Below are positions 2,233 through 6,877 of a stretch of 64,000 bases of DNA, one piece after another. This DNA comes from Escherichia coli (GTDB lineage: Bacteria; Pseudomonadota; Gammaproteobacteria; Enterobacterales; Enterobacteriaceae). The translations under genes and the position numbers were made by a program. A model generated the notes under the pieces. The model searched no databases. It was not told where the DNA came from and saw only the letters and a list, made by a program, of their open reading frames with translations. Each line of letters starts with the position of its first letter. Positions within the stretch are counted from its first letter, which is position 1. The stretch lies in NCBI RefSeq assembly GCF_001677475.2, contig NZ_CP015229.1. The stretch is one strand, 5' to 3'.

Positions 2233-3708
2233 ATGGCTAACTACTTCAATACACTGAATCTGCGCCAGCAGCTGGCACAGCTGGGCAAATGTCGCTTTAT
2301 GGGCCGCGATGAATTCGCCGATGGCGCGAGCTACCTTCAGGGTAAAAAAGTAGTCATCGTCGGCTGTGGCGCACAGGGTCTGAACCAGGGCCTGAACATG
2401 CGTGATTCTGGTCTCGATATCTCCTACGCTCTGCGTAAAGAAGCGATTGCCGAGAAGCGCGCGTCCTGGCGTAAAGCGACCGAAAATGGTTTTAAAGTGG
2501 GTACTTACGAAGAACTGATCCCGCAGGCGGATCTGGTGGTTAACCTGACGCCGGATAAGCAGCATTCCGACGTTGTGCGTTCCGTACAGCCGTTGATGAA
2601 AGATGGCGCGGCGCTGGGTTACTCGCACGGTTTCAACATCGTGGAAGTAGGCGAGCAGATCCGCAAAGACATCACCGTAGTAATGGTTGCGCCGAAATGC
2701 CCGGGCACCGAAGTGCGTGAAGAGTACAAACGTGGATTTGGCGTACCGACGCTTATCGCCGTTCACCCGGAAAACGATCCAAAAGGCGAAGGCATGGCGA
2801 TCGCGAAAGCCTGGGCGGCAGCGACCGGCGGTCACCGTGCAGGCGTGCTGGAATCGTCCTTCGTTGCGGAAGTGAAATCTGACCTGATGGGCGAGCAAAC
2901 CATCCTGTGCGGTATGTTGCAGGCTGGCTCTCTGCTGTGCTTCGACAAACTGGTGGAAGAAGGCACCGATCCGGCATACGCAGAAAAACTGATTCAGTTC
3001 GGCTGGGAAACCATCACCGAAGCACTGAAACAGGGCGGCATCACCCTGATGATGGACCGTCTCTCTAACCCGGCGAAACTGCGTGCTTATGCGCTGTCAG
3101 AACAGCTGAAAGAGATCATGGCACCGCTGTTCCAGAAACATATGGACGACATCATCTCCGGCGAATTCTCCTCCGGCATGATGGCGGACTGGGCCAACGA
3201 TGATAAGAAACTGCTGACCTGGCGTGAAGAAACCGGCAAAACCGCGTTTGAAACCGCGCCGCAGTATGAAGGCAAAATCGGCGAGCAGGAGTACTTCGAT
3301 AAAGGCGTACTGATGATCGCGATGGTGAAAGCGGGCGTTGAGCTGGCGTTCGAAACCATGGTCGATTCCGGCATCATTGAAGAGTCTGCATATTATGAAT
3401 CACTGCACGAGCTGCCACTGATTGCCAACACCATCGCCCGTAAGCGTCTGTACGAAATGAACGTGGTTATCTCTGATACCGCCGAGTACGGTAACTATCT
3501 GTTCTCTTACGCTTGTGTGCCGTTGCTGAAACCGTTTATGGCAGAGCTGCAACCGGGCGATCTGGGTAAAGCTATTCCGGAAGGTGCGGTAGATAACGCG
3601 CAACTGCGTGATGTGAACGAAGCGATTCGCTGCCATGCGATTGAGCAGGTAGGTAAGAAACTGCGCGGCTATATGACGGATATGAAACGTATTGCTGTTG
3701 CGGGTTAA
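2233..3708 (+). CDS. ilvC: Ketol-acid reductoisomerase
   Basis: Translation from ATG 2233 [28 protein letters not shown]..., 491 aa; upstream part of the track ORF is spurious. Confidence 0.95.
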
Positions 3709-3724
3709 TAGCGATTCAGAGTTC

Positions 3725-3749
3725 AAGGCCTTCTCCCGGAGAAGGCCTT
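3725..3749. terminator. Bidirectional hairpin terminator between convergent ilvC and ppiC
   Basis: Perfect inverted repeat aaggccttctc / gagaaggcctt with 3-nt loop. Confidence 0.6.
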
Positions 3750-3753
3750 GCTA

Positions 3754-4059
<306 letters not shown>

Positions 4060-4188
4060 TCAGTCAGGGAGGGGGGGGACATATATGGCAAAAGCCCGGA
4101 AAATCCGGGCTTCGCAGGTCCCTCAAGGGGAGAAAACTTAGGGCCTCTATGGGCTACAGAGTCATTATCGGGGATGGTGATTTTATTG

Positions 4189-4638
4189 TCAATTTATGAG
4201 CGATATGGCATTGATTGACTTGATGACTGCCCTCTGTATGTCTGCAACCAACTCATGTGGCAAACATTGATTAAGATACCCCCGATAAGTCCTTGCTCTG
4301 TTTAATCGGTTTCGACTGACTTGTTGTACCAGGTCGGCTTTAGCCCAACGTATCTGCTGATCAAAGAATTGCAGGTCATTGATAACATTACTGGCTATTT
4401 CAACATGCATTCCACGATTTAACTTGTCATGGTCGCGAGTGGTTGATAATGGAACGACGATACATGCGTTGCCATTAATTTTTCCGTTGAGCACGACAAC
4501 CAACCTATTTTTTATCATCTCAGGTGGAATGCGGCCATCGTAATACGTCGTGCTGAACTGTCCATTCTGGCTAACAGGATAGTTACCAAAGTTGCATTCC
4601 AGTATTTCACCAACCTTGGGGCTGAAATTAATCGCCAC
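4189..4638 (-). CDS. yifN: PemK/MazF-fold putative toxin-like protein (YifN-like), no partner antitoxin seen
   Basis: Translation ...VGEILECNFGNYPVSQ...RLVVVLNGK...ACIVVPLSTT resembles PemK/MazF fold; strong SD taaggagag 8 nt before a GTG at 4638; region is AT-rich. Confidence 0.65.
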   Translation of the reverse strand: MAINFSPKVGEILECNFGNYPVSQNGQFSTTYYDGRIPPEMIKNRLVVVLNGKINGNACIVVPLSTTRDHDKLNRGMHVEIASNVINDLQFFDQQIRWAKADLVQQVSRNRLNRARTYRGYLNQCLPHELVADIQRAVIKSINAISLIN

Positions 4639-4855
4639 GAGTAAACCTCTCCTTAGTAAACTCTGAAAAAGTAATAACACAACGTTACGACCCGATATTT
4701 TCTAAGTCTAATGGATTCATGATGAACTCCGGTTTCGGCCTTCCCTCTCTGATTTAAACATCCGCAGCCATCCGGTTAGCGGTTTTCACTCGGTCACATT
4801 CAAATGCGATTCTGCTACAATCCTCCCCCCCGTTCGAAGATTGAGCAATATACCT

Positions 4856-6877
4856 ATGCGTCTAAACCCCGGCCAACAACAAGCTGTCGAATTCGTTACC
4901 GGCCCCTGCCTGGTGCTGGCAGGCGCGGGTTCCGGTAAAACTCGTGTCATCACCAATAAAATCGCCCATCTGATCCGCGGTTGCGGTTATCAGGCGCGAC
5001 ATATCGCGGCGGTGACCTTTACCAATAAGGCGGCGCGCGAGATGAAAGAGCGTGTCGGGCAGACGCTGGGGCGCAAAGAGGCGCGCGGGCTGATGATCTC
5101 CACCTTCCACACGCTGGGGCTGGATATCATCAAGCGTGAGTACGCGGCGTTGGGGATGAAAGCGAACTTTTCGCTGTTTGATGACACCGATCAGCTGGCG
5201 TTGCTTAAAGAGCTGACCGAGGGGCTGATTGAAGATGACAAAGTCCTCCTGCAACAGCTGATTTCGACCATTTCTAACTGGAAGAACGATCTCAAAACAC
5301 CGTCCCAGGCGGCAGCAAGTGCGATTGGCGAGCGGGACCGTATTTTTGCCCATTGTTATGGGCTGTATGATGCACACCTGAAAGCCTGTAACGTTCTCGA
5401 CTTCGATGATCTGATTTTATTGCCGACGTTGCTGCTGCAACGCAATGAAGAAGTCCGCGAGCGCTGGCAGAACAAAATTCGCTACCTGCTGGTGGACGAA
5501 TATCAGGACACCAACACCAGCCAGTATGAACTGGTGAAACTGCTGGTGGGCAGCCGCGCGCGCTTTACCGTGGTGGGGGACGATGACCAGTCGATCTACT
5601 CCTGGCGCGGCGCACGTCCGCAAAACCTGGTGCTGCTGAGTCAGGATTTTCCGGCGCTGAAGGTGATTAAGCTTGAGCAGAACTACCGCTCTTCCGGACG
5701 TATTTTGAAAGCGGCGAACATCCTGATCGCCAATAATCCGCACGTCTTTGAAAAGCGTCTGTTCTCCGAACTGGGTTACGGCACAGAGCTAAAAGTTTTA
5801 AGCGCGAATAACGAAGAACATGAAGCCGAGCGCGTTACTGGCGAGCTGATCGCCCATCACTTCGTCAATAAAACGCAGTACAAAGATTACGCCATTCTTT
5901 ATCGCGGTAACCATCAGTCGCGGGTGTTTGAAAAATTCCTGATGCAAAACCGCATCCCGTACAAAATTTCTGGTGGTACGTCGTTTTTCTCTCGTCCTGA
6001 AATCAAGGACTTGCTGGCTTATCTGCGCGTGCTGACTAACCCGGACGATGACAGCGCATTTCTGCGTATCGTTAACACGCCGAAGCGAGAGATTGGCCCG
6101 GCGACGCTGAAAAAGCTGGGTGAGTGGGCGATGACGCGCAATAAAAGCATGTTTACCGCCAGCTTTGATATGGGCCTGAGTCAGACGCTTAGCGGACGTG
6201 GTTATGAAGCATTGACCCGCTTCACTCACTGGTTGGCAGAAATCCAGCGCCTGGCGGAGCGGGAGCCGATTGCTGCGGTGCGTGATCTAATCCATGGCAT
6301 GGATTATGAATCCTGGCTGTACGAAACATCGCCCAGCCCGAAAGCCGCCGAAATGCGCATGAAGAACGTCAACCAACTGTTTAGCTGGATGACGGAGATG
6401 CTGGAAGGCAGCGAACTGGATGAGCCGATGACGCTCACCCAGGTGGTGACGCGCTTTACTTTGCGCGACATGATGGAGCGTGGTGAGAGTGAAGAAGAGC
6501 TGGATCAGGTGCAACTGATGACTCTGCACGCGTCGAAAGGGCTGGAGTTTCCTTATGTCTACATGGTCGGTATGGAAGAAGGGTTTTTGCCGCACCAGAG
6601 CAGTATCGATGAAGATAATATCGATGAGGAGCGGCGGTTGGCCTATGTCGGCATTACCCGCGCCCAGAAGGAATTGACCTTTACGCTGTGTAAAGAACGC
6701 CGTCAGTACGGCGAACTGGTGCGCCCGGAGCCGAGCCGCTTTTTGCTGGAGCTGCCGCAGGATGATCTGATTTGGGAACAGGAGCGCAAAGTGGTCAGCG
6801 CCGAAGAACGGATGCAGAAAGGGCAAAGCCATCTGGCGAATCTGAAAGCGATGATGGCGGCAAAACGAGGGAAATAA
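4856..6877 (+). CDS. rep: ATP-dependent DNA helicase Rep
   Basis: Translation from ATG 4856 [31 protein letters not shown]..., 673 aa, UvrD/Rep SF1 helicase motifs. Confidence 0.95.

Follow-up and report, generated by a model that had tools for sequence, protein, structure and literature searches.

A promoter-driven structured RNA gene beside yifN of Escherichia coli, a candidate antitoxin for a MazF-fold protein

The window analysed here is a stretch of 64,000 nucleotides of Escherichia coli contig NZ_CP015229.1 (assembly GCF_001677475.2), in which yifN, a gene for a PemK/MazF-type protein, stands in the order ilvC, ppiC, yifN, rep, gppA. The spacer downstream of yifN contains a structured small RNA gene (4083-4157, minus strand) with a promoter of its own. 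There is good support for this conserved RNA gene and for its linkage to yifN. The original prediction had called yifN an orphan toxin-like gene and had raised a very small RNA as a possible antitoxin. The first description holds in that no protein antitoxin is adjacent, and is probably wrong in that the 4036-4188 spacer holds the promoter-driven RNA gene, which is the kind of element that the second had envisaged. The RNA is probably the antitoxin of YifN by one mechanism or another. That the two form a toxin-antitoxin (TA) pair resembling type III systems, with an RNA antitoxin acting by direct binding to the protein, is judged to be close to, and slightly below, an even chance. RNase activity and toxicity of YifN, its neutralisation by the RNA and the mode of binding are inferred.

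Both spacers of yifN were compared by BLAST with the loci of homologues. The upstream spacer is conserved in the closest genus only. About 75 nt of the downstream spacer (4085-4159) retain 75-90% nucleotide identity in nearly every homologue locus, as far as Pseudomonas plasmids and a Legionellaceae metagenome-assembled genome (MAG), where the proteins are 45-60% identical; YifN-family proteins beside the conserved RNA are only 41-86% identical. The sigma-70-type promoter of the RNA (Table 1) matches the consensus at 11 of 12 positions in a promoter scan. Its -35 hexamer overlaps the TGA stop codon of yifN, and the first base of the RNA lies 6 nt past the promoter and about 32 nt past the stop codon, on the same strand. 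In 40 of the 46 distinct contexts upstream of the RNA, a -35 (TTGAxx)/-10 pair with a 16-17-nt spacer stands with its end 6-7 nt short of the initial G, and the promoter spacer sequences differ between these contexts. Conservation of sequence, promoter and structure indicates that the small RNA is a gene under selection with its own promoter.

The consensus fold of 23 non-identical copies consists of three helices (hairpin 1, hairpin 2 and a 10-bp terminator). In an alignment of 50 copies (43 distinct), which was fitted to the model and so favours the structure, 98.8% of the cells are paired and changes on both sides occur in 8 of 16 pairs. In 500 column shuffles the observed values were never reached, and the signal is lost when the partners are slid. 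Both-side changes are found in six of the ten pairs of the terminator helix, with 99.3% of cells paired, and the minimum free energy (MFE) fold has a z value of -2.6. Insertions and deletions in the terminator loop come in lengths other than multiples of three, which speaks against a hidden peptide. The terminator hairpin would end both the small RNA and the yifN mRNA. A scan of 3600-5000 against Rfam 15 (E up to 1, permissive filters) gave only two chance-level viral matches, both inside the coding sequence (CDS), and none at the RNA.

An RNA of this position has been seen in E. coli K-12. An RNA-seq study of that strain reports a new RNA, encoded on the yifN strand and downstream of that gene, which northern blotting confirmed (PMC4681348). 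Separately, MG1655 was reported to have acquired a C to T substitution 78 nt from yifN, in the spacer towards ppiC, over 1000 generations under simulated microgravity (PMC5460176). By coordinate conversion it falls at about 4110-4113 of the window (NC_000913.3, about 3959933-3959936), in the 5' arm of the terminator helix of the RNA; the published base is off by one from the reading of the window.

The RNA accompanies YifN closely. Covariance model R1 has a single match in the window, at the RNA gene itself (85.6 bits, E = 2.4e-19), and one match beside each of 29 YifN-family genes (29/29) fetched from other (GTDB) genomes, of which the loci of Rahnella, Roseateles, Rubrivivax and P. thracensis lay outside the set from which the model was built. 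R1 found nothing at the ST131 locus, nor beside three PemK genes that are only very distantly related (Sutterella, an alphaproteobacterium). A metagenome collection was scanned blind with a pattern of the RNA only, which returned 42 loci. Directly upstream on the same strand, 35 of these have a YifN match. In 29 of them the match reaches the C-terminus and the gene stops 38-91 nt before the RNA; five more have a YifN match that is short of the C-terminus or otherwise incomplete, one has a YifN fragment 2.2 kb away, two of the 42 have YifN in convergent orientation, and six of the 42 lack YifN, two of these with little upstream sequence. BLAST of a plasmid collection found the RNA in 97 records, at the expected offset from YifN in each record that could be cross-checked. 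The segment of promoter and RNA is present in 4015 E. coli genomes, all with at least 80% coverage and at least 95% identity. Among the loci examined across Gamma- and Betaproteobacteria, no YifN-family gene was seen without the RNA. An unlinked antitoxin, one of the options first considered for yifN, becomes unnecessary given the RNA beside every examined member of the family.

Because the RNA adjoins the 3' end of yifN convergently in Shewanella and Limnohabitans, it is, as gene order indicates, an independent trans-acting unit and not an element of the 3' untranslated region (3'UTR). This bears on the explanation that yifN stands alone as a toxin-like gene, whether domesticated, silent or kept in check by an unlinked factor, and that the RNA is a 3' stabiliser or terminator, or a hitch-hiking small RNA (sRNA). 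Such a reading would agree with the lack of a protein antitoxin open reading frame (ORF) in the flanks, with the failure of PADLOC and NCBIfam to recognise yifN, and with the dispensability of the gene, which about a quarter of E. coli genomes lack and many others carry in frameshifted form. A bare terminator, however, would not retain a promoter at a fixed distance, a pair of hairpins whose loops are conserved, and a sequence that is 75-90% identical between orders, and the convergent copies cannot serve as yifN 3'UTR elements. Mere hitch-hiking is less likely, being hard to square with the 29/29 co-occurrence and with the 37 of 42 RNA-pattern loci that have YifN or a remnant of it. The solitary-gene explanation is considered unlikely.

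Table 1. Coordinates of the features of the yifN locus in the window
Feature	Position	Strand	Description	Basis
YifN-associated small RNA	4083..4157 (4157 to 4083)	minus	about 70-75 nt, 5'-GUAGCCCAUAGAGGCCCUAAGUUUUCUCCCCUUGAGGGACCUGCGAAGCCCGGAUUUUCCGGGCUUUUGCC	covariance model R1, conservation, covariation
Sigma-70-type promoter of the small RNA	4164..4192	minus	-35 TTGACA 4192-4187, 17-nt spacer, -10 GATAAT 4169-4164	
Hairpin 1	4143..4154	minus	GCC[CAUAGA]GGC	consensus fold
Hairpin 2	4120..4130	minus	CCC[CUUGA]GGG, preceded by a U/C-rich linker	consensus fold, compensatory CG to UA change
Terminator hairpin	4088..4115	minus	GCGAAGCCCGG-AUUUU-CCGGGCUUUUGC; GC-rich ten-pair helix followed by a U-run	
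yifN CDS	4189..4638	minus	149 aa, GTG start 4638-4636, TGA stop 4191-4189	ORF list
Shine-Dalgarno region of yifN	4646..4655	minus	TAAGGAGAGG, 7-10 nt upstream of the GTG	read from the sequence
In-frame upstream extension of yifN	4639..4680	minus	candidate alternative start GTG 4680-4678; 14 additional residues, giving a 163-aa isoform	ORF list
Low-GC islet carrying yifN and the RNA	4048..4839		792 bp	four-way alignment, ST131 annotation, composition profile

The PemK/MazF-like signature first read from the translation was confirmed by profile search. YifN matches Pfam PemK_toxin (PF02452) over profile positions 14-108 of 109 with 42.7 bits (E = 7.5e-11; gathering cut-off 23.1 bits), and this is its only significant Pfam match. 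Searches with YifN against NCBIfam and PADLOC gave no matches, and PHROGs yielded only phrog_15698, a family of no known function. An AlphaFold2 model was built on 24 homologues, with a mean predicted local distance difference test (pLDDT) of 79 and a predicted template modelling score (pTM) of 0.74. When this model was compared with the PDB by Foldseek, the 40 best matches were all MazF (E down to 8.5e-6, probability 1.00), with template modelling (TM) scores, normalised to the target, of 0.66-0.78; CcdB and CptN, a type III toxin (4rmo_A, E = 0.023), appeared among the weak matches only. The predicted structure of YifN, of moderate confidence, is thus the SH3-like beta-barrel of the MazF/Kid fold. 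YifN is some 35-40 residues longer than MazF-type toxins. Relative to MazF it has an insertion of roughly 20 residues after the first strand (beta1-beta2 loop region), where model confidence is low.

Among 24 diverse YifN proteins, 22 positions never vary. YifN was also aligned, profile against profile, with four MazF-family reference sequences (MazF, Kid, ChpBK). E40, R45 and S65 of YifN fall there on E24, R29 and T52 of MazF, in which R29 and T52 are catalytic and E24 is conserved; all three are invariant in the 24 YifN proteins. Since the MazF fold is retained with the MazF catalytic positions, YifN is most likely a sequence-specific endoribonuclease toxin. MazF/PemK is a textbook type II family, for which protein antitoxins are assumed.

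The window allele of yifN is intact, with the GTG start and strong Shine-Dalgarno sequence that had been noted before (Table 1). Ribo-RET (retapamulin ribosome profiling) has found translation of yifN to begin at the annotated start and also further upstream in the same frame (bioRxiv 10.1101/520783). The start at 4638 is favoured here because the homologues begin with MAINF or MPINF in the alignment with other genera. Over 3700-4900 the window is 99.3% identical to E. coli strain 165, whose counterpart of yifN is annotated as a PemK/MazF family toxin. The window protein aligns end to end with homologues of other genera and keeps every family-invariant residue. As it is full length with all these residues present, the suggestion of a toxin remnant does not fit this allele. 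It does differ from K-12 in an alignment of the window, K-12, strain 165 and ST131: the K-12 allele has a 1-bp deletion near codon 70, because of which it is annotated as a pseudogene. A 36-mer across this deletion is found in at least 1228 E. coli genomes (a count separate from that of the 4015 genomes with the RNA, the two not being cross-tabulated) and the matching intact 37-mer in 1088; genomes outside these two sets have single-nucleotide polymorphisms in the probe region and were left unclassified.

RNA copies without YifN bear on the role of the pair. Plasmid pLT of Yersinia ruckeri carries a full-length RNA beside a rep gene and no YifN. This and the other RNA-only copies (L053, which is Y. 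ruckeri pLT, and L068, L070, L073, L092 and L093) lie on plasmid-like contigs and adjoin rep, parA/parM-like and relaxase genes; the promoter is good in L092 and L070 and lost in L073 and L093. Such copies may be anti-addiction elements or remnants of decay. Together with the RNA kept beside decayed toxin genes, they give the asymmetry of dependency that is expected of a toxin and its antitoxin. They are also used by the explanation in which YifN and the RNA are a linked pair and no TA system: YifN would be an RNA-binding or RNA-processing protein for a regulatory sRNA with host or plasmid targets (compare FinO-FinP and ProQ-type proteins), and the RNA would be the effector. RNA-only plasmid copies do persist, in some cases with intact promoters (L092, L070, Y. 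ruckeri pLT); K-12 keeps and expresses the RNA despite its broken yifN; the RNA sequence is conserved also in single-stranded parts; and homologues on pCAR1 stand in an array of small genes with an orphan methylase, resembling establishment or anti-defence regions. A pure chaperone would not, however, need the invariant residues at the MazF catalytic positions, and a protein that is often pseudogenised while its RNA is retained shows the classic pattern of TA decay. This explanation is regarded as unlikely, though far from negligible.

An antitoxin could also act by base pairing with the yifN mRNA, in the manner of type I systems, blocking translation or triggering decay. The sites proposed are the Shine-Dalgarno region, with which the C/U-rich linker would pair, or the codons of R97-W98-A99-K100, with which the 5' end of the RNA would pair. 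In E. coli, Superficieibacter, Pantoea and Xenorhabdus the linker UAAGUUUUCUCC can pair with the cognate mRNA at positions -13 to -3 over 8-11 consecutive base pairs, G-U pairs counted. UAGCCCA at the RNA 5' end pairs with UGGGCUA at the invariant Trp-Ala codons, and this pairing reaches 10-11 bp in Pantoea and in the Legionellaceae MAG. Against this, the longest complementary stretch is on average 9.22 nt for cognate and 9.20 nt for non-cognate combinations, the site is not conserved in Pseudomonas or Serratia, and RNA position 3 pairs with the third base of the Ala codon in 10 of 21 loci, which is about chance. RNAduplex comparison of the RNA with yifN mRNA gave inconsistent sites. The RNA is, moreover, far more conserved than the mRNA leaders, and a soluble enzyme of 149 aa is unlike the peptide toxins of type I. 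The base-pairing reading is weakened by these results and is rather improbable.

The two-unit build of the RNA is retained by remoter relatives. At about 32-38% protein identity these have two hairpins and a terminator downstream, with different sequences and fully compensated stems (GCC/GGC, GGC/GCC, CGG/CCG). In Pseudomonas syringae PP1 the promoter TTGACA-17-TATTAT is followed by GGC[CUUUGA]GCC, GCC[UUCGA]GGC and a terminator (33.8 bits); Glaesserella pHN61 has CGG[CUUAGA]CCG, CGG[CAUAGA]CCG and a terminator; and Acinetobacter p3AsACE has an exact tandem repeat, twice UAGCC[GCAA]GGCAAGUUAA, before its terminator. The stem of hairpin 1 thus becomes GGC/GCC in the first and CGG/CCG in the second of these, with the loop form C[A/U]U[A/U]GA kept, and the stem of hairpin 2 is UCC/GGA, GCC/GGC or CGG/CCG across clades. 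Hairpin 1 begins at position 4 and hairpin 2 at position 28-32 in the remoter relatives. The RNA is thus built of two units about 25 nt apart, and of three in some Burkholderiales.

In the reading preferred here, that of direct binding, the locus would be a two-gene module of a MazF-fold toxin and an RNA of about 75 nt with its own promoter and with a terminator common to it and the yifN mRNA. MazF proteins are dimers with two symmetric RNA-binding grooves. The two similar hairpin units, about 25 nt apart, would occupy both RNA-binding sites of the YifN dimer, and the RNA would act as a pseudo-substrate that is not cleaved or is cleaved slowly. Strong constitutive transcription would hold the RNA in excess over YifN. 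Loss of the module or of its transcription would free the more stable YifN protein, with plasmid addiction or abortive infection as the possible outcome. An RNA antitoxin that binds directly fits because there are two hairpin units and a strong promoter, and because the RNA was present beside every toxin gene examined, occurs at times alone and is kept where the toxin has decayed.

Several points weigh against this reading. The RNA has the features of an ordinary trans-acting sRNA (a U-rich linker, a terminator), and since it also occurs without YifN it could have targets of its own. The YifN model is of moderate quality only, with pLDDT below 50 in the loop 35-41. The hhalign match of YifN to MazF has a low probability (17%), and neither phmmer nor the YifN profile found a match among PDB sequences, for which reasons the mapping of the catalytic residues rests on a weak alignment and on the fold. 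In some remoter relatives a protein gene abuts upstream (an HTH protein in Acinetobacter, a 126-aa protein in Fluviibacter), and in those clades this protein could be the real antitoxin. Differences from the known type III systems also count here. In those systems a tandem-repeat array lies upstream of the toxin in the same operon, with a terminator between array and toxin gene, whereas the YifN RNA is downstream, occasionally convergent, and has its own promoter. Tandem Repeats Finder and a repeat finder found no ToxI-like repeat array at the yifN locus. The E. coli RNA consists of two loosely similar hairpin units, and an exact tandem repeat is seen only in the Acinetobacter relative.

Proteins of about 150 aa related to YifN were found in Klebsiella, Pantoea, Serratia, Photorhabdus, Xenorhabdus, Pseudomonas, Aeromonas, Shewanella, Roseateles and others. 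They are found on 134 plasmids, for example IncP-7 pCAR1, pND6-1, the large plasmid of P. savastanoi 1448A and many plasmids of E. coli and Klebsiella. The plasmids include conjugative and mobilisable ones, on which the homologues lie close to par and rep genes. A profile search, run exhaustively over 1.84 billion representatives, shows the family to be compact, with 30 clusters at E <=1e-30 and 126 at E <=1e-10, clusters being at 50% identity. Annotation pipelines label all members 'type II toxin', and the inspected loci of the clade are without an annotated antitoxin.

No protein partner emerged from the neighbourhoods. All ORFs of 4030-4870 on both strands were listed, and among those of at least 20 aa in 4036-4188 and 4639-4855 none is plausible as an antitoxin, as had been concluded by eye in the original prediction. 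The sole candidates on the yifN strand are the in-frame N-terminal extension of yifN and a 20-aa ORF with a TTG start inside the terminator. An all-against-all BLAST of ORFs within 1.5 kb at 32 loci found only genus-level synteny and no conserved protein neighbour, and the contig and plasmid contexts likewise gave no protein neighbour conserved across genera. Two candidates were rejected: a 58-aa PrlF-like gene downstream of one metagenomic homologue, which is a truncated fragment beyond the RNA terminator, and small genes upstream of the pCAR1 homologue, which have no Pfam match and are not conserved elsewhere.

Some contexts were recorded in their own right. On pCAR1 (L050, NC_004444.1 79041-93487) the homologue stands within about 20 small co-directional genes of no known function. 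That run also has an orphan N6 DNA methylase, a GNAT acetyltransferase and a Ser/Thr phosphatase, and resembles plasmid establishment or anti-defence regions. In four metagenomic Burkholderiales-like loci (L046-L049) a 168-aa YifN homologue is followed by a gene for a 655-aa trypsin-like protease and the RNA has three hairpins; L048 has a second YifN copy on the other side of the protease. A TARA metagenome contig of 1477 bp (L104) encodes a 154-aa relative beside a Cas6f/Csy4 gene and ends at ...GTAGCCCT, about 85 nt past the stop codon, where the RNA start is expected.

Downstream structures extend to still more distant proteins. Some relatives at or below 32% identity have an abutting upstream protein gene together with other conserved downstream structures, and the comparison suggests that downstream RNAs may be general to a distant PemK-like branch of the superfamily. 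PemK-like relatives of about 26-31% identity (L100 and L106; L101, L102 and L107) have other conserved non-coding elements downstream, with a common GGAGAUUGCAAUCC in one group and GAUGACAAG...CCCUUUGUC(A/U)UUUC around the terminator in another. BLAST of the RNA against sequenced phages gave no match. Vibrio phage 10N.237.312.C11_PE001 (L097, 13.5 kb), one of a type of small Vibrio elements classed under Tectiliviricetes, has a PemK-like gene of 27% identity that directly follows a gene for a LexA-like repressor. A weak R1 match (18.8 bits) that starts GUAGCC lies about 220 nt downstream of it, in convergent orientation, and is only suggestive.

In the window, yifN and the RNA lie on an islet between ppiC and rep (Table 1). 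As first described, this segment is lower in G+C than its neighbours (0.42-0.44 over 4100-4850, against 0.51-0.60 in ilvC, ppiC and rep). In ST131/B2 strains the whole of it is replaced by about 59 unrelated bases between ppiC and rep. Of 5426 complete E. coli genomes, 3988 carry it at a coverage of at least 80%, and the ppiC-rep position is occupied likewise in Superficieibacter. Near the islet ends are a G-rich tract, GGGAGGGGGGGG (4066-4078), and a C-rich tract, CCTCCCCCCC (4822-4832), whose lengths vary by strain (G8 vs G7, C7 vs C6 in strain 165 and K-12). K-12 has an extra 45-bp insertion beside ppiC, bounded by a TAATTGTCAG direct repeat.

No paper connecting YifN, or any PemK/MazF toxin, with a downstream small RNA was found in a search that left most subscription journals outside. 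The locus may, tentatively and at less than an even chance, represent an unrecognised TA class, spread over gamma- and betaproteobacterial plasmids and chromosomes, in which an independently transcribed two-hairpin RNA would hold a PemK/MazF RNase in check. More remote branches of PemK would have RNAs of their own, and K-12 would carry a dead toxin beside a live antitoxin RNA. If this is true, a PemK/MazF branch relying on a small RNA would connect type II with type III systems, and hundreds of pipeline-annotated 'type II toxin' genes that seem to lack an antitoxin would be explained. The K-12 small RNA seen on northern blots and never explained would gain a candidate function. The RNA family is new to Rfam. 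The RNA-only plasmid copies, if anti-addiction elements, would have a bearing on competition between plasmids. Natural E. coli backgrounds coexist that are free of the islet (B2), have a dead toxin (K-12) or are intact (the window).

Among known systems, the trans-encoded type I pairs (tisB/istR-1, ralR/ralA) are similar in having a small RNA with its own promoter beside the toxin gene. By contrast with these, YifN is no small membrane peptide and its RNA does not run antisense to yifN; nor was any conserved or cognate-specific complementarity found between the RNA and yifN mRNA. With the type II systems MazEF, PemIK (Kis-Kid) and ChpBIK, YifN has the toxin fold and Pfam family in common and the Arg, Thr/Ser and Glu positions are kept, whereas yifN has no upstream gene for a MazE/PemI-type protein antitoxin (ORFs of at least 20 aa, both flanks) and the YifN sequence is too remote for any PDB sequence match. 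A precedent for a non-repetitive RNA antitoxin is AvcID, in which a small RNA (AvcI) neutralises the toxin AvcD post-translationally and which is classed as type III (PMC10511110). AvcD is, however, a deoxycytidylate deaminase and not an RNase, and gene arrangement and RNA are unrelated to those of yifN. The type III systems ToxIN, CptIN and TenpIN resemble the yifN locus in the combination of an endoribonuclease of Kid/MazF-like fold with an adjacent small structured non-coding RNA made of repeated units, in their occurrence on plasmids and chromosomes, and in having no protein antitoxin. YifN differs as a member of PF02452 that stands outside the ToxN, CptN and TenpN sequence families (Pfam, PADLOC). 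Since it belongs to none of these and has no upstream repeat array, the locus is not filed in a known type III family and is put forward as a candidate new variant of RNA-antitoxin TA systems.

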